A DNA stretch of 54,672 nucleotides, from positions 1-54,672 of IMG/VR virus record IMGVR_UViG_3300046780_001084; one strand, 5' to 3'. Source of the stretch: a virus. Its lineage: Duplodnaviria; Caudoviricetes. How positions within the stretch are numbered: the stretch's first letter is position 1; each line of letters begins with the position of its first letter. Shown here piece after piece: positions 4,747 through 53,550 of the stretch. The notes beneath the pieces were generated by a model. It searched no databases and was not told the origin of the DNA. It was given only the letters and a program-made list of their open reading frames with translations. Made by a program: the position numbers and the translations under genes.

Positions 4747-4760
4747 ATTTCTACGGAATC
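4747..4760 (-). promoter_or_regulatory. Phage motif GATTCCGTAGAAAT (putative middle promoter)
   Basis: One of 7 copies found upstream of gene starts. Confidence 0.6.
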
Positions 4761-10608: not shown

Positions 10609-10615
10609 CAATCTT
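10609..10615 (+). promoter_or_regulatory. Putative late promoter motif CAATCTT (also 13152, 19957, 23669, 30208, 33380, 34698; TAATCTT 29942; GAATCTT 9921; minus strand 53541)
   Basis: AT-rich heptamer 6-11 nt before start codons of structural genes in a GC-rich genome. Confidence 0.75.
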
Positions 10616-13135: not shown

Positions 13136-13168
13136 CAAGCACTTACGACCACAATCTTCTGGGGGACC

Positions 13169-16100
13169 ATGGCTGACACGCCCACTCCGCGCTCGTACCC
13201 GCAGACCCTCGGCGATATGTTCGATGCCTTCCTGTCGAAGCAGGGCATCCGGTCGCTGCGTGTCGGTGGTCCGATCGTGTCCTTGCTCGAAGCCGCCGCC
13301 CAGAGCGACATGCGGAACGCGCAGGACATCTTCAACCTGCTGACGAGCGCGGACCTCGACAACGCCACCGGCCTCGCGCTCTCGCGCATCGGCCGCGCCG
13401 AAGGCATCCCCAAGCTGGAGATCACGCCGTCCGCGGGCGTCGTGACCCTCTCGGACACGAGCTTCACCAAGAAGGCGACGAGGCTGTTCCAGGGCGCGCC
13501 GGCTCCGATCGTGGGCACGGGCGTCGTGACCCCCATCAACGTCGTCGACGCCAGCTCCTTCCCGGCGCCTGGCCCGACCACCAAGATCTACATCGGCCGC
13601 GGCACGAACAACTACGAAGGCCCCATCCGCTACACGGCTATCGTCAACGCCGGAAACCACTGGGAGATCACACTCGCCACTGCGACGACGAGGTTCCACA
13701 ACACGACCGAGACGGTCATCCTCGCCCAGGGCGACAACCGCACCATCGGCCCCAACACGGTCGTGCGCACGCCGCAGGCGAGCGTGGCGAGCGCCATCGA
13801 CTTCCGCACGCTGTACTCGGTGACCCTGCCCGACGGTGAGACTGAGGTCTCGAACATCCAGGTCGTGGCCCAGCTCGGGGGATTGATCGGAAACGTCATC
13901 GCGGGCGCCATCAGCGAGTTCTCGACCGCGCCCTTCAACGGCGCGAAGGTGTCCAACACGCGTCCGTTCACCAACGGGCGTGAGACGGAGTCGGACGACG
14001 ACTACCGCGAGCGCATCCGCAACGTGCGCGCGAGCCGCCAGCTCGGCACGGCGCTTGCGATCACGACCGCGGTCACCGGCATCACCGCCTTCGACGAGAA
14101 CAAGCGCATCAACTCCGCCAGCCTCGTGAAGCGCTTCGGCTTCCCGGCCACGCTCTACATCGACGATGGCACCGGCTACGAGGAGCGCACTTCCGCTGTC
14201 GCCGTCGAGAGTCTGATCGATGACGCCACGGGCGGCGAGACCCACTTCGAGACCACCCAGCGCCCGATCGCTCGTGCGTTCGCCATCACCACCAACGTCG
14301 CCCCGTTCGTGCTCCGCTCGACCGACCAGCTCTCGGTCAAGGTCGGTGGCACGACCTACACGCACTCGTTCAACGCGGACGACTTCCACTCGATCTCCAA
14401 CGCCAGCGCGTTCGAGGTCGTGGCGTCGATCAACTCGAACCCGGACATCGCCTTCGTCGCTCGCACCGCAGAACAAGGATCCAAGGTCGTTGTGTTCGCG
14501 AACGCGGACACCAACGAGGATGTCGAGATCATCGAGAACCAGGGTGGGACCAACGCCAACGCCGGCCTCGCGTTCCCAGCCGGCGTGAACTACACGATGC
14601 GCCTCTACAAGAACGACCGCCTGCTCGTGAAGGACGGCGTCATCGCTGTGCTCCGCAGCCAGCCGTTCGCAACGTGGAACACCGTCTCGGGACCGCAGAC
14701 CCTCACCGTCGCTGTCGACAGCACGCCCTCGATCACGTACACGTTCGAGGACCAAGATTTCATCGATGCCAACACCGGCTACGCAACTCTTGGCCGGAAC
14801 TCACCCGCGGCCTGGGCTGCGGTGGTTAATGCCAAGATCCCGGGTCTCACCGCAACGGTGGACGCGGGCAAGCTCGTGCTCACCTCCAACGCCGGCCCCG
14901 TGTCACGGGCTGCGGTGGAGATCTCGGGTGGTTCCCTGGTGGCGGCGCACTTCTTCGAGAGTGGTGTCGCCCTGGGCGCTCGCCGTGACTACGTCCTCGA
15001 CCGCAACGAGGCCCAGATCGTTCTCAGCCAGATCTTGGAGGCGGGTGACCGTCTCACTGCCGGCTCGTTCGCGACCCGCGCTTTCGTCGAGTCCGAGGAC
15101 ATGACGACGGTCTCCCTTGCCAGCGACGCCCACCTCTGGTGGCTGGTCGATGGGACCGCCAACATCATCGAGCACGGAGTGACCCCCACCACCAGCCTGG
15201 ACATCGCGGTCGCAAAGACCGAGGACTTCGGGAATTTGGTGACCATCACCGCCGGCTCGGCCGTGTTCGCGAACGTCCAGCCCCAGGACTGGATGATCCT
15301 CTGGGACAGCTCCGTTCCCACCACCCTCCGCGGCGTGCACCGTGTGGCCGACGCGAACTCGACCACGGTCACGATCGAACGCCACACCTCGCTCACCTCG
15401 CGCTACGGCCACCGCTCGGTCCGCATCCCGGGCATCGGAACCGCCATCGGCCAGATCTTCACTTGCGGTGGCGCCATCAAGCCGCGCAGCACCATCGCTT
15501 TGACCGACGTCCCTGACGGCGTCATCGGAACCGCCGAGCTGTACGACCCCAACACCAAGATCACCACCCCCGCCGCGCCGATGAACACCTCGCGCGCCTT
15601 CCACACGGCGACAGTGTTGGCAAACGGCAAGGTGGTCGTGGTCGGCGGCGTGAACGGGTTCGGCGTCCACACGGGATCTATCGAGACGTACGACCCCGTC
15701 GCCGACACCTGGACGACCTCGGCCGTGTCCACCACGACCCAGCGCAAGAACCACACGGCCACGCTGCTCACCGACGGTCGTATTTTGATCGCGGGCGGCG
15801 ACAACGGCGGCGCGGCGAACGACAAGTTCCAAGTCTACGACCCCTCGGGCGACACCATCACCGTCGAGGGTACGATGGTGAAAGCCCGTTCGCACCACTG
15901 CGCAGTGAAGCTGCCGGACGACACGGTGCTGATCGCGGGCGGCTACGATGCCGGCGGAGTCGACCTCGTGGACGCCGAACGCTTCACGCCGGGTCCCGAC
16001 ACTACCGTTGCAACGGGCAGCATGAGCGTCCCCCGTTCGTGCTTCGGCATGTCCGACGTCGAGGTGACCCCGACGAAGGTGATTGCAGCCGGCGGCAAGC

Positions 16101-19100
16101 TGGGCGGCATCGGCGCAGACAGCTGGGAGCTGTACGACATCGCTGGCGGCACCTGGGGCGGCGGGAGCACGATGTTCGTCAACTTCGAGCACAAGCCTCT
16201 CATCAAGCTCAAGAACGGCCACGTCGTCGGCCTCAACGCCTATACCAGCGACAACCCTCCGGAGTACGCCGCGTTCACCTACGACGGCACCACGTTCACC
16301 GAGCTGCACACGCCGATCCCGCCGTCGTGCATCGATCAGAACAACCCGCGCTGGGACAGCGAGTACGTCGAGCTTCTCTCAGGCGACGGCACGACCGTCA
16401 AGAACCAGGTCGCCAGCATCGGCGGCTCCTTCGTCCTGGGCGGATCGTTCGGCTACCAGGCCTCGTCGGTGCTGAACGTCTACGACGAGCCCGGCAACAC
16501 CTGGAACGCTCCCGAACCGGCCGCGACCACCAACCTGCTCCTGGGCGACGCCGGCATCGCCTTCGTTCGCTCGGACGCATTCGTGCAGGACACCCTGATC
16601 CCGAGCGGTGGCAGCTACACCGCCAACTCGCTCGCAGACGCGTTCAATGCCGACCTGGTCGGCGCAACGGCGTCCGTCTACAAAACCACCAAGCTCCGCG
16701 TCAACACCAACACCTTCGACGATACGGGCGACATCGCCATGGTCACCCGCGACGTGACCGCCGAAGCGATCCTGCTCGACCCGGCGCCGGCCACCGAGAA
16801 CCTGGTCCCGCACCTCGGAGCGGTGATGAGCGCCAACAGCGACCTCGGCACCCCGTCCTTCGAGGACGTGCGCGTGGTCAGTCAAGAGGCGGGGGTGCCG
16901 CACGCCAAGCCGGTCGTCACCAGCACCGTCATCGGACACGACTACGCCATCGTCGGCCTCAAGAACCTGGCCCGCGGCACCGACGGCGGCAGCCCGTTCA
17001 GCCTCGGTGTTCCCTTCACGAACCTGCGCGCCAACAGCAACTTCAAGTTCGCCACCCGCCTGAAGACTCGCGTGGTCGACGGAAACCTCGTCTCCACCCT
17101 CGAAACCCGCGATGCTCCGCCCCAGGTCTGGGGACCGTGGGACCGCGTTGTCGCTGCGGCTCCGTTCGCAATCAGCCCGAACGGAAACCTGGACGTTCTC
17201 GTCGACAACGACAACGACAAGCGCTACCCGATCAATCTGTGGCGCACGCTCCAGACCGTCGGATCTACGTACGGTTCGTCGAACGACTTCCGTGACGGCG
17301 ACGACGCTGGTGCAAGCCTGGCCGCCACTTTCGGTCTCGACTACGACTTCAACGACATGGCCGTCTACATGGCGTCGCGCGCGGTGGCCTTCCCGGCCGA
17401 CGCCGCTCGCCGCATGGTCTTCCGCTACTTCCGCCTCGGCCCCGATGGCGACGGCGTGCGTCTGCGCTTCGGCAATCCCGACGCCCCCAGCACCAATCTG
17501 AAGGTCGCCACCTTCATGGACGACGGCAATCTGACCAACGTCACGATCAAGCTGAAGTCCGGAGCACCCCGCACCCCCACGATCCACAACACGACCCGTG
17601 TCGGACAAGGTATCACCGCGATCACGGCTGGCGGCACCGCTACGTTCGTCGAGGTGCTGAACCTCGCCATCTCGTCGGCGTCGCGTACCACGAGCGTCGT
17701 CACCGCGACCGTGACTCTGCCGGCCGGCATCACCGACCACGGCTTCGCCATCAACGACCGCGTCTGGGTGCAGTCGACCGACGTGAACTTCTCGTCGGGT
17801 CTGAAGTCGATCTCGGGCGTCACCGCGACCACCTTCGACTACTCCGAGTCCGCGGGTGACATCGGCGCCACCGCCAACATCGGCACGGTTTCGTTCGACG
17901 GCCAGGGCGAGTCCTCGTTCACGGGCTCGGGCACGGTCGCGCTGGACTTCTACCGCCTCAACGACCCGACGAATCTCGTCTCCTACGGGAACGCCACGTT
18001 CCAGGTCAGCTCGGTTCCCGCGGGCGGTCACCACATCTACGTCCTTTCAGGCGATCAAATCGACGGCGCCAGCCAGTTCGTGGCCACCACGCTCACGTGG
18101 GTCCCCATCGTCAGCACCGCCTACCTCCAGGTCTTCGCGAACAGCCCGCAGACGGCCGGCGCCATCGCCACCGCCATCCAGGCTCTGCGCGACGCGAGCG
18201 GCTCGACCAATCCGATCTCGGCGAAGGAGACGGGCACGGGCCTTAACAACATCTCCCAGAACACCTGCGACGAGCTGGACGCATCCGAGTTCTGGTACGT
18301 CCTGCACGACGGCGTGAACTGGGTCAAGACCACCACGCTGCCGCTACTCATCTCGGACGACTACACTCTGGAGTTCAAGGCCCCCATCACGGGAGCGTTG
18401 GCCACCAACTCCGACTGGGAGAACGAAGAAGTCCGCATCGTACCCATCACGACCAAGAACATCGTGGACTGGCTGAACACGCCGACGGTGACGGGTCTGT
18501 GGACCGTGGCTGATATCGAAGCTGCCGGCGCGGGACACCACGTCCAGCTCTCGACCCTGACCGCAGGCTCGGATGGCGGCGTCAAGGTTCAGGGCGGGCT
18601 CGCGAACAGCGTCACCGCTCCGATCGTGGGCTCGCCTGTTTTGACGGGTGGCTCGTCGGCTGTCTCGACCGTTGCACTGCTCGACGCTGACGGCTTCACG
18701 AGCGGCATGTGGTTCCGCATCCAGAACGAGAACCAGCTCCCGAAGCCGACCATCATCGCTCCGGGTCTCGTTCTCAACTCCTGGGACTCCGCGGGCTTGA
18801 TGACCTTCGCTTCCCCGATCTACACCCAGAATGCTGGTCCCAGCCAGCTCCGTGTCCAGTTCGAGCGCCAGGGTCGATTCGTGGCGATCTCCGACACCGG
18901 CTCGACGGATGCCCCTTTCTTCGGATCCATTCCCCACGGGTCCTGGTTGCGCGTCTCTCCGGCGACCTCACCGACCATCGGCCAGGTCCAGGCCGCGAAC
19001 CAGGGCATCTTCCGCATCCTCCGCTCCACGGCGGGCGTCGGCGGAACCTCGGGCACGATCTACATCGAGAACCCGATCTGCGTCGAGGAAATCTCGGAGT

Positions 19101-19951
19101 GCTTGATCACCGTCTTCATCCCCGACTCCGTCATGCCGGGAGACCAGCTTGCCGTGCTCGACCCCACCTGGGGCGTGAACAACATGGGCGTCTGGACCGT
19201 GAAGGCGGTGGGAGAAGACGTGGCTGGCGACGGAAACGTGTTCAACGACAGCGCCACCGTCACCGTCGACGTCTCCTCGCGCACCCCGGCTCCGCAAGGC
19301 GCTTCGGCAGCCCTCACTTCCGCGGGAATCATCTACCTTCGCGAAGGTATCCCGGGCGTGTTTGTCATGCGTGCGGACGGCATCTCCCTCAACCAGGACG
19401 ACGGAAACTTCGTCAACATCCGCTGGGACATTGGCATCGACTCGTCTTCGATCTCGGAGTCGGCTGGCTCGGTCATCACGGTGCTCGACAAGCTCGACTT
19501 CCCGCAGGACTTCTCCGCGGGCTCGGACGGCTACCGCTACGACGTGGGCCTGCTCCGCGAGGCCAACAAGGTGGTGTACGGCGACCCAGGCAACCCGGTG
19601 ACCTACCCGGGCGTGGCCGCAGCCGACTCGCAGATCAACATCCAGGGTCCGCTCGTGAAGCGTATCCAGGTGGGTCTGTCGGTCCGTGTGAAGACGGGCC
19701 TCAACACCCAGGACATCGCCAACCGCGTCCGCTCGGCAGTCGCCACGGTCGTCAACCAGACCACCATCGGCAAGTCCATCGCCTTCAGCGACATCATCGA
19801 TGCCGCCCGGGAGGTCGTGGGCGTGGTCTCGGTTGCCATCGTGTCGCCGCTGTTCTCGGTCGAGCACGACCAGATCAAGATCCAGCCGTACGAGAAGCCG
19901 TTCGTCCTCGATCTGACCCAGGACGTCCAGGTCAGCTTCCTGGGCACCTAA
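13169..19951 (+). CDS. Giant baseplate wedge protein (baseplate J/gp6-like) with internal Kelch repeats
   Basis: N-terminal LDNATGLALSRIG, GNV.AGAI, FTNGRETESDDDYRERI; C-terminal IGKSIAFSDII; central HTATVLANGKVVVVGG / HTATLLTDGRILIAGG. Confidence 0.9.
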   Translation: MADTPTPRSYPQTLGDMFDAFLSKQGIRSLRVGGPIVSLLEAAAQSDMRNAQDIFNLLTSADLDNATGLALSRIGRAEGIPKLEITPSAGVVTLSDTSFTKKATRLFQGAPAPIVGTGVVTPINVVDASSFPAPGPTTKIYIGRGTNNYEGPIRYTAIVNAGNHWEITLATATTRFHNTTETVILAQGDNRTIGPNTVVRTPQASVASAIDFRTLYSVTLPDGETEVSNIQVVAQLGGLIGNVIAGAISEFSTAPFNGAKVSNTRPFTNGRETESDDDYRERIRNVRASRQLGTALAITTAVTGITAFDENKRINSASLVKRFGFPATLYIDDGTGYEERTSAVAVESLIDDATGGETHFETTQRPIARAFAITTNVAPFVLRSTDQLSVKVGGTTYTHSFNADDFHSISNASAFEVVASINSNPDIAFVARTAEQGSKVVVFANADTNEDVEIIENQGGTNANAGLAFPAGVNYTMRLYKNDRLLVKDGVIAVLRSQPFATWNTVSGPQTLTVAVDSTPSITYTFEDQDFIDANTGYATLGRNSPAAWAAVVNAKIPGLTATVDAGKLVLTSNAGPVSRAAVEISGGSLVAAHFFESGVALGARRDYVLDRNEAQIVLSQILEAGDRLTAGSFATRAFVESEDMTTVSLASDAHLWWLVDGTANIIEHGVTPTTSLDIAVAKTEDFGNLVTITAGSAVFANVQPQDWMILWDSSVPTTLRGVHRVADANSTTVTIERHTSLTSRYGHRSVRIPGIGTAIGQIFTCGGAIKPRSTIALTDVPDGVIGTAELYDPNTKITTPAAPMNTSRAFHTATVLANGKVVVVGGVNGFGVHTGSIETYDPVADTWTTSAVSTTTQRKNHTATLLTDGRILIAGGDNGGAANDKFQVYDPSGDTITVEGTMVKARSHHCAVKLPDDTVLIAGGYDAGGVDLVDAERFTPGPDTTVATGSMSVPRSCFGMSDVEVTPTKVIAAGGKLGGIGADSWELYDIAGGTWGGGSTMFVNFEHKPLIKLKNGHVVGLNAYTSDNPPEYAAFTYDGTTFTELHTPIPPSCIDQNNPRWDSEYVELLSGDGTTVKNQVASIGGSFVLGGSFGYQASSVLNVYDEPGNTWNAPEPAATTNLLLGDAGIAFVRSDAFVQDTLIPSGGSYTANSLADAFNADLVGATASVYKTTKLRVNTNTFDDTGDIAMVTRDVTAEAILLDPAPATENLVPHLGAVMSANSDLGTPSFEDVRVVSQEAGVPHAKPVVTSTVIGHDYAIVGLKNLARGTDGGSPFSLGVPFTNLRANSNFKFATRLKTRVVDGNLVSTLETRDAPPQVWGPWDRVVAAAPFAISPNGNLDVLVDNDNDKRYPINLWRTLQTVGSTYGSSNDFRDGDDAGASLAATFGLDYDFNDMAVYMASRAVAFPADAARRMVFRYFRLGPDGDGVRLRFGNPDAPSTNLKVATFMDDGNLTNVTIKLKSGAPRTPTIHNTTRVGQGITAITAGGTATFVEVLNLAISSASRTTSVVTATVTLPAGITDHGFAINDRVWVQSTDVNFSSGLKSISGVTATTFDYSESAGDIGATANIGTVSFDGQGESSFTGSGTVALDFYRLNDPTNLVSYGNATFQVSSVPAGGHHIYVLSGDQIDGASQFVATTLTWVPIVSTAYLQVFANSPQTAGAIATAIQALRDASGSTNPISAKETGTGLNNISQNTCDELDASEFWYVLHDGVNWVKTTTLPLLISDDYTLEFKAPITGALATNSDWENEEVRIVPITTKNIVDWLNTPTVTGLWTVADIEAAGAGHHVQLSTLTAGSDGGVKVQGGLANSVTAPIVGSPVLTGGSSAVSTVALLDADGFTSGMWFRIQNENQLPKPTIIAPGLVLNSWDSAGLMTFASPIYTQNAGPSQLRVQFERQGRFVAISDTGSTDAPFFGSIPHGSWLRVSPATSPTIGQVQAANQGIFRILRSTAGVGGTSGTIYIENPICVEEISECLITVFIPDSVMPGDQLAVLDPTWGVNNMGVWTVKAVGEDVAGDGNVFNDSATVTVDVSSRTPAPQGASAALTSAGIIYLREGIPGVFVMRADGISLNQDDGNFVNIRWDIGIDSSSISESAGSVITVLDKLDFPQDFSAGSDGYRYDVGLLREANKVVYGDPGNPVTYPGVAAADSQINIQGPLVKRIQVGLSVRVKTGLNTQDIANRVRSAVATVVNQTTIGKSIAFSDIIDAAREVVGVVSVAIVSPLFSVEHDQIKIQPYEKPFVLDLTQDVQVSFLGT

Positions 19952-19972
19952 AGCCCCAATCTTAGAGGGGAG

Positions 19973-23664: not shown

Positions 23665-23682
23665 GCCACAATCTTCTAGTCG

Positions 23683-25774: not shown

Positions 25775-27346
25775 ATGTTCGGCTTTGACGGTCCATTCGG
25801 CGCATCCACCCCTCTGGCCATCTCGCCGGCATCATCGCCGCGCGTGGTTGGACACGGGTTCACCTTCTCCGCGTCAGGCGGTACGGGCTCGGGGTACGTC
25901 TTCAGTTTCGTCGCGAACAACAGCGGCGGCACCCTCAATACCAGCACCGGGGCGTACGTCGCGGGCAGCACCCCGAACGTCACCGACACGATCCGCGTAA
26001 CGGACAGCGGAGCGAACACGGCCGACGCCACGGTCGCCGTCAAAGCCGCGATCGTAATCAGCCCCTCGTCCATCACGCTGCCGCCGCTCGGGACCCACAC
26101 GTTCACCGCAACCGGCGGCGTCAACCCCGGCGGCCCCGCCTTCCAGTTCGTCTTCGGCTGGAACAACTCCGGCGGCACGATCAACAGCACCACCGGTTTG
26201 TACACTGCCGGCTCGACTCCCAGCGTGACTGACAAGGTTCGCGCTACCGACGTCCAGAATAACGAGGACATCGCGGTCATCACGGTCGGGCCGAGTGTCA
26301 GCATCTCGCCGACCACTCCGACCGTCATCGCTCTGAATACGCAATCGTTCACGCCGAGCGGCGGAAGCGGCACCGGATACGTCTGGTCGCTGACAGTCAA
26401 CAACTCTGGCGGCTCGATCAACGCCAGCACCGGTCTCTACACCGCTGGATCTACCGGCAGCGTCAGCGACACGGTCCACCTGGTCGACTCACTCGGCAAC
26501 TCCGCCAATACCGTCGTCAGCGTTGTCCCCGGCGTCAGCCTCAGCCCGTCCAACCCGACCAAGGCTCCTCTGGAGTCTCAGACGTTCGTCGCCAGCGGCG
26601 GCACTGGCACGGGATACGTCTACTCGATCTCCGTCAACAACAGCGGTGGCGGCATCAACCCAATTTCGGGCACCTACGCCGCCGGTCCCACGGGCAGCGT
26701 CACCGACACGGTGCGGGCAGTCGACTCGGGCGGCAACATCGGGACGACCAACGTCACCGTCACCGCCGCGCTCAGCATCGCTCCTGCGAACCCGAACGTA
26801 CACTTCAACGGGACCCAAGCCTTCACCGCAATGGGTGGCAGCGGCATGGGCCTCGTCTGGTCCCTCTCCGTCAACAACTCCGGTGGGTCCATCAATGCCA
26901 GCACGGGCCTGTACACCGCCGGCTCCGCCTTCGGCGTCAGCGACACGATCCACGTGGTCGACTCACTCGGAGCTGTCGCCAACACGACGGCGAACGTCAC
27001 CCGACTGATCGCAACGTGGGACATCGAGCCGTCCGTGGACACCCAGGGGAATTTGCGCTTCACCTTGGTCAGCAGCGATATTTTCGACATGTTCCTGGTT
27101 CACGACGGAGACTTGGCGTACATCTACGGAGACGAGTTCCAGCCCACGAACACCAACGGCACGTTCACGATCAAGGTCGTCTTCGTCACGGACTCGGAAA
27201 AGTGGTTCGAGATCGAGAACCCTCTCGGCATCGAAATGCTCGGCATCGAACAGATCAACTTCCAGGACTTGATGTTCTTCCGCCCGAAGCGCCGCACCAT
27301 CTACGACAACCCCCGCCGCGTCATCGTCTGCGAGAACGAACAATGA
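25775..27346 (+). CDS. Protein with five tandem Ig-like repeats and a baseplate-like C-terminus
   Basis: Repeated ISP..FTASGG.GTGYVWSL.VNNSGG.IN.STGLYTAG..V.DT....DS.G units. Confidence 0.85.
   Translation: MFGFDGPFGASTPLAISPASSPRVVGHGFTFSASGGTGSGYVFSFVANNSGGTLNTSTGAYVAGSTPNVTDTIRVTDSGANTADATVAVKAAIVISPSSITLPPLGTHTFTATGGVNPGGPAFQFVFGWNNSGGTINSTTGLYTAGSTPSVTDKVRATDVQNNEDIAVITVGPSVSISPTTPTVIALNTQSFTPSGGSGTGYVWSLTVNNSGGSINASTGLYTAGSTGSVSDTVHLVDSLGNSANTVVSVVPGVSLSPSNPTKAPLESQTFVASGGTGTGYVYSISVNNSGGGINPISGTYAAGPTGSVTDTVRAVDSGGNIGTTNVTVTAALSIAPANPNVHFNGTQAFTAMGGSGMGLVWSLSVNNSGGSINASTGLYTAGSAFGVSDTIHVVDSLGAVANTTANVTRLIATWDIEPSVDTQGNLRFTLVSSDIFDMFLVHDGDLAYIYGDEFQPTNTNGTFTIKVVFVTDSEKWFEIENPLGIEMLGIEQINFQDLMFFRPKRRTIYDNPRRVIVCENEQ
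25811..27000 (+). repeat. Five approximately 240-nt coding repeats (Ig-like domains)
   Basis: Recurring aacaac(tc/ag)..ggcggc..atcaac...tacaccgccgg blocks. Confidence 0.85.
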
Positions 27347-29505
27347 AATTCCTAGACATCGTCATCCCGGCGACTACCGAGGTTGTCGGTCGTGGACCCG
27401 GCCTCGCCGCGTACCTGAAGGGCCTCGCTGCGCTCGCGGGCGAGAACTTCTCGCTGATCCGCACGGGCGATGGCGTCGTCACGGTCGACGTCGACGCGTC
27501 ACACGGTCTCTCGGTCGGAGATCAGATTTTCATCGACGGCGTGTTGCCCACGGGCGAAGTGCCGGCCACCGACTCCGGAACCCCGAGCGGCAACTTTGCG
27601 AGCCCGAACGATACTCAGTCAGGCATCACCGCGGCCTCGATCCACTCGACCAACAGCCAGGCCGGCACGTACGAAGGCGTGTTCAGCCGCGCGATTCGCA
27701 ACCCCGAGGGGAGACTGATCATCATCGGCGGAGCCACCACTTCCGACGGCCTCACCTTCACCCCGAAGGACAACTTCACCGTGCTGGAAGTGACCGGCGA
27801 GACCGTGTCTGGCAGCGGCGGACGTGCGGTCGACTACCTCTGGACCCAGATCGCCCCGGACGGAGCACACGGCTTCAACCTCCCGAACTTCGGGTACCGC
27901 AACTTCGCCGCGTCCCTCCTGACCGACGGCCGTATTCTCTGCACGGGCGGAGCGATCGGCGACGATCTCACTGGCACCCCGGTGCTCGGCTACGACCTGC
28001 TCACCTTCATTCCCCCGGACTCCGTCTCACAGCAACAGGGGATGTTCGACAGCCGAGTCGCGCACGGACAGTGCGCACTGAGCGATGGCGGAGCGCTGGC
28101 CTCCGGCGGCTGGGCGGTCGCCGGCACCCCGCTCGCCACGTCCGAGCGCTTCGACGTGACGACCGAGAGCTGGGCCAACGACGCGGTCATGAAGGTCGCC
28201 CGCATGCACCACGAGCTGGTCGCACTCGACGACGGACGCGTGCTCGCGATCGGAGGTCAGAAGAACTCCGCTGCCACCAACCTCATCAACCGTTGCGAGA
28301 TCTGGAACAGTATCACCTGGGAGCTGACGGGCAACATGACGTACGCCCGCACCCAGTTTGGAGTACTGAAGCTCCCCGACGGCCGCGTGCTCGTCATCGG
28401 CGGTAACGGCTACAACCCGAGCCGCGCACACTCACCTGGAGCACTCAGCTCCTGCGAAATCTTCGACCCGAAAACGGGACTGTGGAGCACGATCGCTTCC
28501 ATGCGCAACGGGCGCTCGCATCCGGCCATCGCGTACCTCCCGACGGAGAACGCCGTGTACGTGACCGGCGGCGCGAACGGCGTGTTCAACGTCGAGGTCC
28601 TGGACTTGGACACCATGCGCTGGCACGTCTCCATGGCCCAGATCCAGACTCCCCACCTCGACCCCACGGGCGGCCTGGTGGGCACCGACGTGTTCGCCAT
28701 GGTTGGCGGCTGGGACCACGCCATCTCCACCGAGAAGACCAACCAGATCGTCGTCCCGGGCGAAGACCGCGTGTGGGAAGGCGCCGGCATCAACGGCATG
28801 CACCGGGTGGCCGAGGTTCCGGACGGTACCCATGTCATCGTCCACACCCGCGAGTACGACTACAGCCACTCCTACACCGTGGCCCGCGCGGGCGCTGACG
28901 TGACCCCGATGCGCGCCGAGGCTGCGCCTTCGACGGTTCCGGGCCCGTTCTCGTACGACGTCAAGACCGGGCTCGCGATCACCGCAACGGCTGGTACCAC
29001 CGACACGGCCTTCAACCGCGGCGTCCACTACTCGTCCGTGCACCTCACGGGCTTGGACCCGGCACTCGACTTCCCCGATGAGGAGGGGTGGCTGGTGTTC
29101 AACTTCGGCTACCACAACATGGTCGGTCCCGTCCGCTACCTGGGACGCCTGAGCGACGAGGACTTGATCCTCGATGCCGACGTACCATTCAGCGCGACCC
29201 TCCCGGCCGGTGCAACCGTGCGATTGCTGTCCGGACGTGTCCCGTTCGAGCCGGCGGCAGACCACCTGGTGGGCAACTTCTACGTCACCGGCACGGCCGC
29301 GGGCCGCGAAGCAGCCCGCCAGATCATCAACGACATCGTGGCCGCCGGCAAGCAGGTGTTGGTGACCGTGATCTACCCGGGCGACCGCGGCCTGGGCGGC
29401 GAGGGCTTCCCGCAAGGCGGCAGCTACAAGCTCTCCGACAAGGTCTCCGTGTGGGGCGGCGACGAGCTGGACAGCGAACTTCCGGCAGCCAGGAAGGGTC
29501 CGTAA
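27343..29505 (+). CDS. Kelch-repeat baseplate/tail protein
   Basis: ATG 27343 (ATGA overlap) MKFLDIVIPATT; Kelch repeats RMHHELVALDDGRVLAIGG, LPDGRVLVIGG. Confidence 0.85.
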   Translation: MKFLDIVIPATTEVVGRGPGLAAYLKGLAALAGENFSLIRTGDGVVTVDVDASHGLSVGDQIFIDGVLPTGEVPATDSGTPSGNFASPNDTQSGITAASIHSTNSQAGTYEGVFSRAIRNPEGRLIIIGGATTSDGLTFTPKDNFTVLEVTGETVSGSGGRAVDYLWTQIAPDGAHGFNLPNFGYRNFAASLLTDGRILCTGGAIGDDLTGTPVLGYDLLTFIPPDSVSQQQGMFDSRVAHGQCALSDGGALASGGWAVAGTPLATSERFDVTTESWANDAVMKVARMHHELVALDDGRVLAIGGQKNSAATNLINRCEIWNSITWELTGNMTYARTQFGVLKLPDGRVLVIGGNGYNPSRAHSPGALSSCEIFDPKTGLWSTIASMRNGRSHPAIAYLPTENAVYVTGGANGVFNVEVLDLDTMRWHVSMAQIQTPHLDPTGGLVGTDVFAMVGGWDHAISTEKTNQIVVPGEDRVWEGAGINGMHRVAEVPDGTHVIVHTREYDYSHSYTVARAGADVTPMRAEAAPSTVPGPFSYDVKTGLAITATAGTTDTAFNRGVHYSSVHLTGLDPALDFPDEEGWLVFNFGYHNMVGPVRYLGRLSDEDLILDADVPFSATLPAGATVRLLSGRVPFEPAADHLVGNFYVTGTAAGREAARQIINDIVAAGKQVLVTVIYPGDRGLGGEGFPQGGSYKLSDKVSVWGGDELDSELPAARKGP

Positions 29506-29930
29506 TGCCTTCGATCGTACTTGCATCAGCACAGGTCATCCTGTTTGTCAACGGAAACCCGTTCGGTCGGGTCAACCGCTTCAGCTACAGCATCGACACC
29601 CCGCGCCGCAAGATCCACACCGTCGACTCGGTGCTGCCGTTCGAGCTGGCCACGGGCGTGACCAACGTGTCAGGCTCGATGGGGCTCTACCGTACCCACC
29701 TCGACGGCGCCGTGGAGGGGCCGGGCATGGTGGCGCCCCTGGAGGAGCTGCCGCGCGAGAAGTACTTCAACATCCTGCTGATCGACCTGGTCTCTCAGAC
29801 CGTGATTTTTCAAGCTGATTTCTGCTCGGTCGAGAGCCAGTCCTGGTCGTTCGAAGCCAAGAGCCTGGTCTCGGGCGCGGTGAACTTTTCTGCACTTTCG
29901 TACAACAATGAGGTGCGTCCGCTCGGGTGA
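29505..29930 (+). CDS. Tail tube-like / tube initiator protein
   Basis: ATG 29505; 141 aa beta-rich, ILFVNG..FSYSI..I..VDS..PFEL..VSGS...CSVESQSWS. Confidence 0.65.
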   Translation: MPSIVLASAQVILFVNGNPFGRVNRFSYSIDTPRRKIHTVDSVLPFELATGVTNVSGSMGLYRTHLDGAVEGPGMVAPLEELPREKYFNILLIDLVSQTVIFQADFCSVESQSWSFEAKSLVSGAVNFSALSYNNEVRPLG

Positions 29931-29948
29931 TTCAGTAGACTTAATCTT
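29929..29948 (+). promoter_or_regulatory. Tandem GATTCAGTAG and TAATCTT motifs upstream of the leader/tRNA unit
   Basis: Both phage motifs adjacent and in sense orientation. Confidence 0.65.
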
Positions 29949-29957
29949 GAGATCACC

Positions 29958-30005
29958 GTGAAGCACCTGTCATCGTCCAGTAGCTCTTCTTCGTCGAGTC
30001 GCTAA
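29958..30005 (+). CDS. Poly-serine leader peptide MKHLSSSSSSSSSSR
   Basis: GTG AAG CAC CTG TCA TCG TCC AGT AGC TCT TCT TCG TCG AGT CGC TAA; GTG 9 nt after AATCTT, same spacing as neighbouring genes. Confidence 0.75.
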   Translation: MKHLSSSSSSSSSSR

Positions 30006-30012
30006 GCGACTC
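29996..30012 (+). promoter_or_regulatory. Hairpin GAGTCGC-TAA-GCGACTC with the leader stop codon as loop
   Basis: Perfect 7-bp inverted repeat; no U tail. Confidence 0.75.
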
Positions 30013-30015
30013 CGT

Positions 30016-30101
30016 GGAAAGTTCTGGGCCGTGGGGTCCGATCCGCCTCGAAAGCGGACATAGCTACCTTCGGGTAGGGGGTTCGACTCCTCAGCTTTCC
30101 T
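30016..30101 (+). tRNA. tRNA-Ser(CGA), 8/4-type cloverleaf
   Basis: Acceptor GGAAAGTT/AGCTTTCC (8 bp), anticodon arm TCCGC-CTCGAAA-GCGGA, variable arm CTACC-TTCG-GGTAG, T arm GGGG-TTCGACT-CCTC (4 bp); no encoded CCA. Confidence 0.85.
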
Positions 30102-30106
30102 CCTTC

Positions 30107-30196
30107 GGAAACGACGTCGCATGTCGGTTTTGCGCAGCAGGTTGCTAACTTGCCGGGCCCGCAAGGGCCCCGAGAGTTCGACTCTCTCCGTTTCCT
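30107..30196 (+). tRNA. tRNA-Ser(GCT)
   Basis: Acceptor GGAAACG/CGTTTCC, D stem CGCA/TGCG, anticodon arm GCAGG-TTGCTAA-CTTGC, variable arm GGGCCC-GCAA-GGGCCC, T arm GAGAG-TTCGACT-CTCTC. Confidence 0.9.
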
Positions 30197-30224
30197 CTGG
30201 CGACACGCAATCTTAAGGGTAACC

Positions 30225-31937
30225 ATGGCCGTTCTCCGCCAAGCTAACCTCCTGGGCAATCAGCGCGTCGACATCCCGCACCTGCGCTCGATCGAGTCGG
30301 CGGTGGCCGGCGACATCGACCTTCTCGCTGGCGTCATGATCGCCGGCAAGGCGCCGCTCATCACCGAGGGCTTCTACGTGCTCTCGACGGGCATCACCAT
30401 CGCGACCGGACTCAAGATCCGCGTCGCCGACAGCAGCCTCATTCACTTCCTTGCGTCCGAGTCCGGATCGATCTTCCACGTGCCGTCCGATCGCCCCGAC
30501 GAACAACTGAACTCGGTCAACCCGCGCATCATCGGCAGCTTCACTTCGGGCATGGTCAACTACGTCGGCCTCGACTTCGTTCGCGAAGCGGACGATACGA
30601 CGGTCGACCTCGTCGAGTTCATCGACTCGGACTCGGAGCTGGAGACGCCGGTCCAGGTGCCGCTCGGGCGCACGCTCGACTACCGCATCGTCATCACGAC
30701 GCTGGACTTCGACAACAACCCCGGTATCTGCCCGATCGCGAAGGTCACGCTCGACGACGCCAACAACGTCACCGTGCTGGAGGATGCGCGTCGTTTCGCA
30801 TTCCGCCTCGGCTCGGGCGGCACGATCCCGAACATCAAGAACTCCTATGCGTGGCCGGCCGGCCGCGCGGAGAACACGAGTGGTGACGTGTTCGTCGGCG
30901 CCGACAAAGCCATCGGCAATTTCAAGGACTGGATGGACGCGATCATGTCGCGTATGTGGGAGGTAGGCGGCGGCGAGTACTGGTACTCACCCACCAACCC
31001 GATCAACGAACGCCTCGCGCGTACGGGCTCTCCGTTCGTCTCGAACGGCGAGTACTTCGAGTGGGACGGAGCGAACATTCACTGGAAGGGCCTGGTCTGG
31101 ATCTTCGCGAACTCGACCGGCGTCGTCAACCCGGTCCAGGACCAAGCTTCCGACTCGGCGGGCCTCACCGACCTCGCTGACGGCGAGTGTATCTACGTCG
31201 ACGTCGACCGCACGCAGGACACCACGATCATCGCCGCCAAGGCTGCCCTCGCGACGCTGGGGTCGCCAGAGATCCCGGGCTCCCGCTACGTCATCGCGTG
31301 GCGCCACAGCAACGACATCTACACGCGTGACCAGTCGTACGCGGTCAACTCTGCGTTCAAGAACGCGACCACCGCGGCGGGTGGCATGGTCAAGCTTTCG
31401 GCCACGAACGGCACCACCTCGTATCCCGCTCAGGTCGCGACCGTCGACGACATCAACTACTTCGCGTTCGCAGGAGGTCTGAGCCGCAGCGGTGACTTCT
31501 TCGGCGGCGCAGGCGATCTCCAGATCGGTGGTTGGGGTCCGGAAGACAACAACGTCCTCATCAGGACCACCGAGACGCAGTACCAGACAGTGATCGACGG
31601 CGATAACAACTGGAGCATCAACGCAACGTCGGCACTCTGCGTTCGCCAGATGCACCCGTTCACGTCAAGCACCTTCTACCGCATCCTGACTCTCCAGGGT
31701 TTCGACGGCAATGACGCGCTCAACAAGGACAGCTTCTCGTTCGAGGCTGCCGGCACGATGCAGTGGAGGATGATCGAGGGCACTCCGGGACCGCCGGCCC
31801 ACACCTTGACGAGCCCTCTCCAATTCAAGACCTACTTCCGTACAAACGGCTTCACCACGCCCAATATTCGCGACCAGCAATGCATCATGGACCGTGACGG
31901 CAACATTACCGTCACGTGGGAAGGACCGGCTTACTAA
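30225..31937 (+). CDS. Baseplate/tail-fibre attachment structural protein
   Basis: True start ATG 30225 (MAVLRQANLLGNQRVD) after CAATCTT; NATTAAGGMVKLS fibre-like motif. Confidence 0.8.
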   Translation: MAVLRQANLLGNQRVDIPHLRSIESAVAGDIDLLAGVMIAGKAPLITEGFYVLSTGITIATGLKIRVADSSLIHFLASESGSIFHVPSDRPDEQLNSVNPRIIGSFTSGMVNYVGLDFVREADDTTVDLVEFIDSDSELETPVQVPLGRTLDYRIVITTLDFDNNPGICPIAKVTLDDANNVTVLEDARRFAFRLGSGGTIPNIKNSYAWPAGRAENTSGDVFVGADKAIGNFKDWMDAIMSRMWEVGGGEYWYSPTNPINERLARTGSPFVSNGEYFEWDGANIHWKGLVWIFANSTGVVNPVQDQASDSAGLTDLADGECIYVDVDRTQDTTIIAAKAALATLGSPEIPGSRYVIAWRHSNDIYTRDQSYAVNSAFKNATTAAGGMVKLSATNGTTSYPAQVATVDDINYFAFAGGLSRSGDFFGGAGDLQIGGWGPEDNNVLIRTTETQYQTVIDGDNNWSINATSALCVRQMHPFTSSTFYRILTLQGFDGNDALNKDSFSFEAAGTMQWRMIEGTPGPPAHTLTSPLQFKTYFRTNGFTTPNIRDQQCIMDRDGNITVTWEGPAY

Positions 31938-33375: not shown

Positions 33376-33392
33376 GAGGCAATCTTAGAGTC

Positions 33393-34693: not shown

Positions 34694-34715
34694 GCCCCAA
34701 TCTTAGAGGTAGAAC

Positions 34716-53520: not shown

Positions 53521-53550
53521 GCAGCAGCTCCTTGTGGTTTAAGATTGCCG

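Follow-up and report, generated by a model that had tools for sequence, protein, structure and literature searches.

The window analysed here is the entire 54,672-nt stretch of IMG/VR virus record IMGVR_UViG_3300046780_001084, a fragment of an uncultured soil myovirus with a G+C content of 64%. Inside a run of plus-strand genes for the myovirus baseplate and tail (baseplate J, kelch-repeat proteins, a tail fibre and an endolysin-like protein), a very short open reading frame (ORF) at 29958–30005 precedes two transfer RNA genes for serine (tRNA-Ser); we call the ORF the leader, and the leader with its tRNA genes the cassette. The leader starts at GTG, encodes M-K-H-L-Ser10-R in 15 codons and stops at a TAA at 30003–30005. 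Checked codon by codon, it reads as the initial annotation of this DNA had it: GTG, AAG, CAC and CTG, then the ten-codon Ser run at 29970–29999 (TCA, TCG, TCC, AGT, AGC, TCT, TCT, TCG, TCG and AGT, drawing on both Ser codon boxes), then CGC and TAA. The first six codons of the run are the six different Ser codons, each used once, which is also as first described. The stop codon lies in the loop of a 7-bp hairpin, GAGTCGC-TAA-GCGACTC, at 29996–30012, in which five pairs are invariant among related loci and two alternate only between G-C and G-U. Ten nucleotides past the stop begins a type II tRNA-Ser with anticodon CGA (30016–30103), followed by a type II tRNA-Ser with anticodon GCU (30107–30196).

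The composition of the leader stands out within its own genome. In the six frames of the window, every other run of a single residue is shorter than its ten-Ser stretch, and among 346 small ORFs of the window only one, the leader itself, reaches its Ser fraction. Read in its other two frames, the same DNA yields 1 Ser in 13 and 1 in 12 codons. Across 585 Ser codons from 16 structural genes, TCG accounts for 34%, AGC for 30%, TCC for 24%, and TCT, TCA and AGT together for only 11%, in keeping with the earlier claim that the last three are disfavoured in this genome.

The presence of a tRNA-Ser pair 10 nt past the stop had been proposed from the letters alone, and it holds for the two genes on different grounds. 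ARAGORN calls tRNA-Ser(CGA) directly. On the window it makes no call for the second gene (30107–30196), which is identified by its fold, a five-arm type II cloverleaf with anticodon GCU, and by its homologues, called tRNA-Ser(gct) by ARAGORN in five related loci (L001/L006, L007, L018, L019 and L022). The same program fails on one or both Ser genes in the window, L007, L020 and L021. The window tRNA-Ser(GCU) carries one U more in its D stem than six homologues do, and it scores 31.1 bits against the Rfam tRNA-Sec model, below the gathering threshold. Both window genes fold as five-arm cloverleaves with Rfam scores below gathering, and both possess the long variable arm and Ser anticodon of a type II tRNA-Ser. 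The two phage tRNAs fit the commonest Ser codons of the window, TCG and AGC. The discriminator position is U in both window genes and G in the first tRNA of L019; the CCA end is not encoded.

Related loci were sought with the neighbouring 141-aa protein as the query. A viral collection returned six loci, the two closest of which, L006 (92% identity) and L007 (84%), both carry the cassette; ARAGORN finds zero tRNAs in four viral loci at 47–49% identity, and in L008, L010 and L002 the two flanking genes are only ~65 nt apart. Metagenomes returned eight loci, and the cassette is present in five of five at 67–71% identity, a count that leaves out L023–L025 (49%), the last of these on a 4,614-base contig. 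All seven relatives with at least 67% identity to the 141-aa neighbour therefore carry the cassette, with six distinct leader sequences: MKHLSSSSSSSSSSR (the window and L006), MKLLSSSSSSSSSSR, MKRTSSSSPSSSSR, MKFLSPYSSSSSSSR (L018 and L022), MMLRSRSSSSSSSSR and MFLLSSSSPSSSSR. The relatives include a complete genome of 182 kb with terminal repeats (G001). The window DNA itself is present in soil and rhizosphere metagenomes. No DNA similarity to a cultured phage was found, and Myxococcus phage Mx1, at 33–38% protein identity, is the sole cultured relative found.

The six leaders vary in the manner of a reading frame. Every one has an in-frame start codon (GTG in four, ATG in two) and an identical TAA, and the ORF is 45 or 48 nt long, changing only by multiples of three, whereas the flanking distances vary by 1–3 nt (18–21 nt from the CTTAATCT motif to the start, 9–12 nt from the stop to the tRNA). 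The Ser run, whose conservation at homologous loci the initial annotation had listed among its tests, is kept: Ser is retained in 53 of 58 run codons, at 8–10 per variant, including switches between TCN and AGY. The rare codons TCT, TCA and AGT make up 30 of these 53, against 11% in structural genes. The order in which all six Ser codons come first is limited to the window and L006 and is not conserved. L006 has a leader identical to that of the window, yet its tRNA-Ser(CGA) has diverged with compensatory changes. No other frame on either strand is consistently open across the relatives; an antisense ORF over the leader was considered and rejected as not conserved. Invariant stretches of nucleotides are found in the upstream box and in a 3′ block, TCTTC[G/A]TCGAGTCGCTAA. 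As judged from these alignments, the pattern is as expected of a putatively translated leader in which codon class alone would matter.

Conservation of the ORF could also mean that the 14–15-residue Ser-rich peptide is itself functional and that its adjacency to tRNA-Ser is coincidental. Residues 2–4 are free to vary, however (KHL, KLL, KRT, KFL, MLR and FLL), as are the P, Y or R that interrupt the run, and the paralogous units described below encode unrelated peptides that track their own tRNAs. We regard a function of the peptide as very improbable.

Cognate leaders recur before other tRNA units of these phages. G001 encodes ~29 tRNAs in two clusters, none of them for Ser, and its sole tRNA-Ser genes are those of the leader cassette in the tail module. 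Four tRNA units of G001 have a TAATCT motif, and a short ORF stands at the start of each. In unit B1 the leader MFTRLLSRLSLLLA is Leu at 6 of 13 residues, using five different Leu codons, and it precedes tRNA-Leu(gag), tRNA-Leu(cag) and tRNA-Leu(caa). The 46-aa leader of unit B2 has 32 of 45 residues among T, I, R, Y, P, H, Q, D and F; the tRNAs downstream are Phe, Asp, Pro, His, Tyr, Thr, Thr, Gln, Ile, Arg, Arg and Gln, and their anticodons can read 30 of the 45 leader codons. Unit A, with tRNAs for Asn, Val, Val, Ala, Lys, Met and Gly and the rest of that cluster, has a 39-aa leader with 31 of 38 residues among N, V, A, K, M, G, W, E and R; an internal box precedes tRNA-Met within this unit, and there the box is present and an ORF absent. 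When the four G001 leaders are tabulated against the four tRNA sets, the diagonal values are 0.62, 0.82, 0.46 and 0.71 and the off-diagonal values at most 0.36. Among the 24 ways of assigning leaders to sets, the true one scores highest; the peptides were re-derived from their coordinates.

In two further relatives, G002 and G003, the genes for Ser(cga) and Ser(gct) are part of a cluster with the order Tyr, Phe, Pro, Leu, Ser and Ser. The leaders of these clusters have 25 of 34 and 23 of 32 residues among Y, F, P, L and S, compared with 11–14 of ~31–33 in the other frames, and they differ from each other by a 6-nt in-frame indel and by swaps among S, P and L. A Y/F/P/L/S-rich leader where the Ser pair is part of a larger cluster indicates that leader composition tracks the tRNA set through rearrangement. 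The leader ORFs of these other units, each with an excess of residues cognate to its own tRNAs, lie at L026 2644–2688 and 1611–1751 and at L032 1601–1720 (all minus strand) and at L324 585–692, and belong to G001 and G002. The cognate fraction of each leader is reached by only 0–2 small ORFs in backgrounds of 346 and 351, and the enrichment is frame-specific in all five leader types. The sample behind this generality consists of four units of one genome, G001, together with G002 and G003.

These comparisons bear on a reading in which the region is not translated at all, and comprises a promoter and a structured pre-tRNA 5′ leader, serving as a processing signal or, after RNase P cleavage, as a stabiliser of the 3′ end of the upstream mRNA, with the ORF incidental. 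The invariance of the upstream box and of the 3′ block at the nucleotide level fits such a role, as does the conserved hairpin, and CU-rich tracts tend to code for S, L, P and F in any case. What this reading does not account for is that enrichment follows a single frame in every leader type, that indels stay in frame next to flanks that vary by 1–3 nt, and that a start codon is kept although its sequence and spacing have changed. Moreover, the pyrimidine tract is broken by AGY codons, and unit A is purine-rich and still matches its own tRNAs. We consider an untranslated region improbable.

Pattern searches for further cassettes mostly led back to known contigs. TCTTCGTCGAGTCGCTAA matched only two viral contigs that were already known. 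GACTTAATCTTGAGATC returned two further contigs, AT-rich and unrelated, which were rejected as cassettes. TCRTCGAGTCGCTAA matched 106 viral and at least 120 genome stretches, and among the 226 matches listed only two known contigs are real. With patterns for Leu-type and mixed leaders, GATTCGATAGTAATCT gave 17 loci, of which G001 alone is real, and ATGGTCACCCGGTTCTCAGCC gave nothing beyond G002 and G003; a gapped pattern, TAATCT...ATGKTCACCCG, gave 26 loci, the real ones being G001, G002 and G003 only. Four DNA runs yielded only short contigs of low depth, one of which, from X12, has a loose end, ...ATCACCG ATG TTC CAG, joined in frame at 29967, a weak hint of a further ATG-start leader.

Two motifs upstream of the leader bear on how its transcript begins. 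The window contains 18 copies of AATCTT, where 7.7 would be expected. As the initial annotation had noted, the copy at 29943–29948 lies 9 nt ahead of the GTG, a spacing within that found at seven other plus-strand starts (6–11 nt). The longer form CAATCTT is found at 10609–10615, 13152–13158, 19957–19963, 23669–23675, 30208–30214, 33380–33386 and 34698–34704, and on the minus strand at 53546. It sits 6–11 nt upstream of structural-gene start codons, often right after the preceding stop; the copy at 30208–30214 is 10 nt upstream of the next gene, and the minus-strand copy is 20 nt from the start of a gene that has its own AAGGAG. The leader's motif TTAATCTT (29941–29948) belongs to this family, which precedes late genes, and is conserved as CTTAATCT in every cassette locus. 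CAATCTT looks like a −10-type element of late promoters that would yield very short 5′ untranslated regions (UTRs).

The second motif, the promoter-like box GATTCAGTAGA at 29929–29939, is the window counterpart of the G001 box GATTCGATAG. G001 contains 26 exact copies of GATTCGATAG, compared with one of a reversed-pattern control, and all 26 directly precede a gene start or a tRNA, often 6–9 nt from the ATG. Five copies of GATTC[A/C]GTAGA occur in the window, on the minus strand at 4760, 7961, 38060 and 46750 and on the plus strand at 29929, each 6–40 nt ahead of a gene start; when two mismatches are allowed, the count is not above chance. The TAGAAN-to-ATG distance of 6–7 nt suggests that early mRNAs may be leaderless. 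At the leader, the promoter-like motifs end 10–16 nt upstream of the GTG. In G002 and G003, TAATCT lies 17 nt downstream of TTGACA and 7 nt upstream of the leader ATG as read by eye, and a promoter scan makes no call at this site. On these grounds we take the motifs as promoter elements, and infer that the leaders would lie at or near the 5′ ends of their transcripts. A role for AATCTT as a promoter −10-like element is accordingly more likely than one in ribosome binding.

The stop-codon hairpin is predicted to extend into the first tRNA. In all seven sequences, RNAalifold pairs the last Ser codons (CAG..C.TCTTCG) with the spacer and nucleotides 1–11 of tRNA-Ser(CGA), a helix that in the window spans 29977–30027 and engages the 3′ half of the Ser run. 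Over the seven sequences 99.2% of its cells pair, compared with 42–62% when the partner is slid, and one pair covaries, being G-C in four and A-U in three. With 12 nt of tRNA attached, the leader has a folding energy of −19.1 to −22.6 kcal/mol in all seven. For the full precursor, the minimum is the helix state in three of seven and the cloverleaf in four of seven, with a gap between the states of at most 4.3 kcal/mol. The partner is specific, in that only 0–7 of 73 other phage tRNA 5′ ends pair equally well. Adding 12 nt of tRNA stabilises all other leader types as well, in a calculation that was run without a control and is not used as support.

From the anatomy of the locus, the coding-type conservation and the co-variation of leaders with tRNAs, we infer translation of the leader, stalling, a direction of response and an output in folding or processing, as follows. 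The mini-ORF would be a translated cognate-codon sensor, located at the 5′ end of the tRNA-Ser precursor or close to it. Its Ser-codon run would make the transit time of the ribosome depend on the efficiency of Ser decoding. On a ribosome-free leader, the 3′ half of the Ser run would zip up, together with the stop-codon hairpin, into the helix with the first 11 nt of tRNA-Ser(CGA), blocking formation of the acceptor and D stems, so that RNase P could not process the precursor. A ribosome slowed at Ser codons would instead occupy the leader strand, allowing the cloverleaf to fold and mature tRNA-Ser to be released. The net loop would convert poor Ser decoding into a higher output of tRNA-Ser. 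We advance this model tentatively, at somewhat less than an even chance of being right in this form.

Attenuation in the style of his, thr and trp, to which the leader had first been compared, fares less well. Intrinsic terminators were sought over 29400–30400 and none was found in the leader, the only match nearby being the T arm of the second tRNA; the G002 leader and unit A likewise have no terminator-like site. Since the Ser unit has no intrinsic terminator, it is not a his/trp-type attenuator, and the classical mechanism is absent. An Rfam search over 29000–31000 at E ≤ 1 returned two tRNA-like matches and one chance plastid match, with no T-box, and no Rfam leader family matches the Ser unit.

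The same sensor could nevertheless act on transcription or RNA stability, with a stalled ribosome hiding an unstructured, C-rich leader from Rho, blocking a terminator hairpin or shielding the 5′ end from decay; tnaC and pyrBI have comparable modes of action. In the paralogous Leu leader of G001 unit B1, the TAA lies in the loop of a hairpin that the scan calls terminator-like, with a T run after it. The Ser and Leu leaders are alike in layout and length, both having 14 codons and the TAA in a hairpin loop, and the Ser run is pyrimidine-rich and weakly structured. That terminator-like sites are missing from the Ser unit, the G002 leader and unit A speaks against this output, as does a stop-to-tRNA gap of only 10 nt, and we think it unlikely, though to be taken seriously.

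The helix also admits a response of opposite sign, in which passage of the ribosome melts the leader:tRNA helix and thereby licenses the tRNA, so that tRNA-Ser is matured only while Ser decoding works, as feed-forward or quality control. The anatomy is identical to that of the stalling model. With the stop codon 10 nt ahead of the tRNA (9–12 nt across the Ser leaders), a terminating ribosome, given its usual footprint, would reach the tRNA 5′ end. Such a licence leaves unexplained why cognate codons are preferred over others, and why rare Ser codons are preferred among them. It seems to us about as improbable as the untranslated reading.

Several observations weigh against the stalling model and against the sensor reading in general. 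A GTG preceded by a very short 5′ UTR makes for weak initiation. The two phage tRNAs can read 29 of the 53 leader Ser codons (TCG and AGY), so the sensor would not be a pure read-out of those two isoacceptors; the remaining 24 are unreadable by them, and extra phage tRNA would not relieve a stall there. Of the 17 helix pairs 11 never vary, and the sole covariation may represent one event. For the six leaders, random synonymous recoding of Ser gives pairing as good or better in 14, 82, 365, 217, 160 and 71 of 500 trials, and on its own the leader shows no unusual degree of structure (z = −0.10); the helix may be a mere consequence of a UCN-rich tract adjoining a purine-only acceptor strand. As regards the other units, the leaders of A, B1 and B2 came to light in a scan that favoured ORFs rich in cognate residues, and the tRNA sets were delimited after that scan, so P values for the match are optimistic. 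Inspection of regions upstream of tRNA genes in related phages, as the initial annotation had suggested, gave cognate ORFs in G001, G002 and G003; Mx1, with 37 tRNAs, was scanned and no cognate leader ORF was found, and solitary tRNAs in G002, G003 and G005 lie directly behind protein genes without a leader.

Taken with these points, a Ser-codon leader that senses decoding on behalf of the tRNA-Ser genes is the best-supported reading of the cassette. The proposal that the leader senses Ser codons gains from the translated-type conservation of the ORF and the recurring match of leaders to tRNAs, and loses its more specific forms, a classical attenuator and a pure isoacceptor read-out. More broadly, we put at just under an even chance the view that, in a soil lineage of Mx1-like phages, a short, near-leaderless cognate ORF heads each tRNA transcription unit and lets ribosomes gauge decoding capacity unit by unit and so set the output of tRNA, each sensor being re-tuned as tRNAs move. 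Such re-tuning would show in the Y/F/P/L/S leader where the Ser pair sits in a cluster, and, where the units are split, in leaders of Leu only and of Ser only.

Known systems share parts of this design. The trp, his, leu, thr and pheA attenuators place a run of cognate codons in a short leader ORF, and the leu leader uses rare synonymous codons. The phage leader resembles them in its short upstream ORF, seen in six variants, and in its cognate run with rare synonymous codons; they differ in acting through an intrinsic terminator and antiterminator on biosynthetic operons, whereas the phage Ser unit has no terminator and precedes tRNA genes. T-boxes bind uncharged tRNA directly, without translation, and control synthetase or biosynthesis genes. 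They too are cis elements that read the state of a specific tRNA at genes for the same amino acid, but the phage Ser unit has no T-box match.

The closest parallel may be the poly-Cys leaderless small ORFs of mycobacteria, where ribosome stalling reportedly prevents an RNA duplex from sequestering a downstream functional element (Canestrari et al., bioRxiv 10.1101/834739). As that preprint describes them, they share with the phage leader a very short ORF, in the phage putatively near the transcript 5′ end, and a run of codons for a single amino acid, and our preferred model, in which the ribosome holds the leader strand while the cloverleaf forms, follows their logic. The sequestered element there is the ribosome binding site of a Cys-metabolism gene, and in the phage unit that part would fall to the 5′ strand of a tRNA; the duplex logic has been tested in the mycobacterial system, and the phage unit would regulate tRNAs. 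In Bacillus subtilis, TCN serine codons of sinR serve as a serine sensor (PMC3862929). Ser decoding speed is likewise the signal there, with TCN and AGY treated differently, but in the account given the codons are scattered through a regulator coding sequence, with no leader and no link to tRNA genes. Phage tRNA arrays are described as codon supplements or as counter-defence (PMC10264068); the units here are likewise phage-encoded tRNA clusters, and our literature searches turned up neither leader ORFs nor a cis-acting decoding sensor described for such arrays.

In the open full-text literature (subscription journals lay outside the search), we found no leader peptide controlling tRNA genes and no cognate leader ORFs before phage tRNA arrays. 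If the reading is correct, control of tRNA genes by a leader peptide would be seen here for the first time. The tRNA genes of phages are usually viewed as passive codon supplements or as decoys for tRNA-cutting defences; here, phages would gauge decoding capacity and adjust tRNA supply during infection. Leader-peptide attenuation would then reach from amino-acid biosynthesis to the tRNAs themselves, with a new type of output, a tRNA fold that competes with its leader. The units are small and modular, at 14–46 codons plus a motif, and could be reused as codon-specific sensors of translation.

The genes on either side of the cassette belong to the virion module. Upstream, 29505–29930 encodes the 141-aa protein, with a weak match to virion structural protein phrog_985; downstream, 30225–31937 encodes a 570-aa structural protein whose gene, in distant relatives, directly follows that of the 141-aa protein. 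In L018 (698–780) and L019 (1888–1985), the 141-aa protein has a C-terminal extension of ~20–30 residues ahead of the cassette. In L007 (3730–3800), the G001 cassette is followed, in place of the 570-aa homologue, by a Cys-rich ORF, a possible HNH-type endonuclease, and in L004 an endonuclease-like ORF precedes the 570-aa homologue. The junction downstream of the cassette appears to be an insertion hot spot.

Other features were observed in passing. On the minus strand of L026 in G001, at 1890–1800, a box is followed by a ~70-nt segment that ends in a strong terminator-like hairpin, possibly a small RNA encoded between tRNA units B1 and B2. In Mx1 42800–64500 (L355), the 37 tRNAs found by ARAGORN exceed those annotated in the record, the additions including Tyr, Ala(tgc), two Pro, Cys, three Arg, two Met and two Ser. 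Kelch repeats occur in two large proteins of the window's virion module, at 13169–19951 (2260 aa) and 27343–29505 (720 aa), the larger of which also has a baseplate J-like part, and the Mx1 annotation has a kelch-repeat protein at the matching position.

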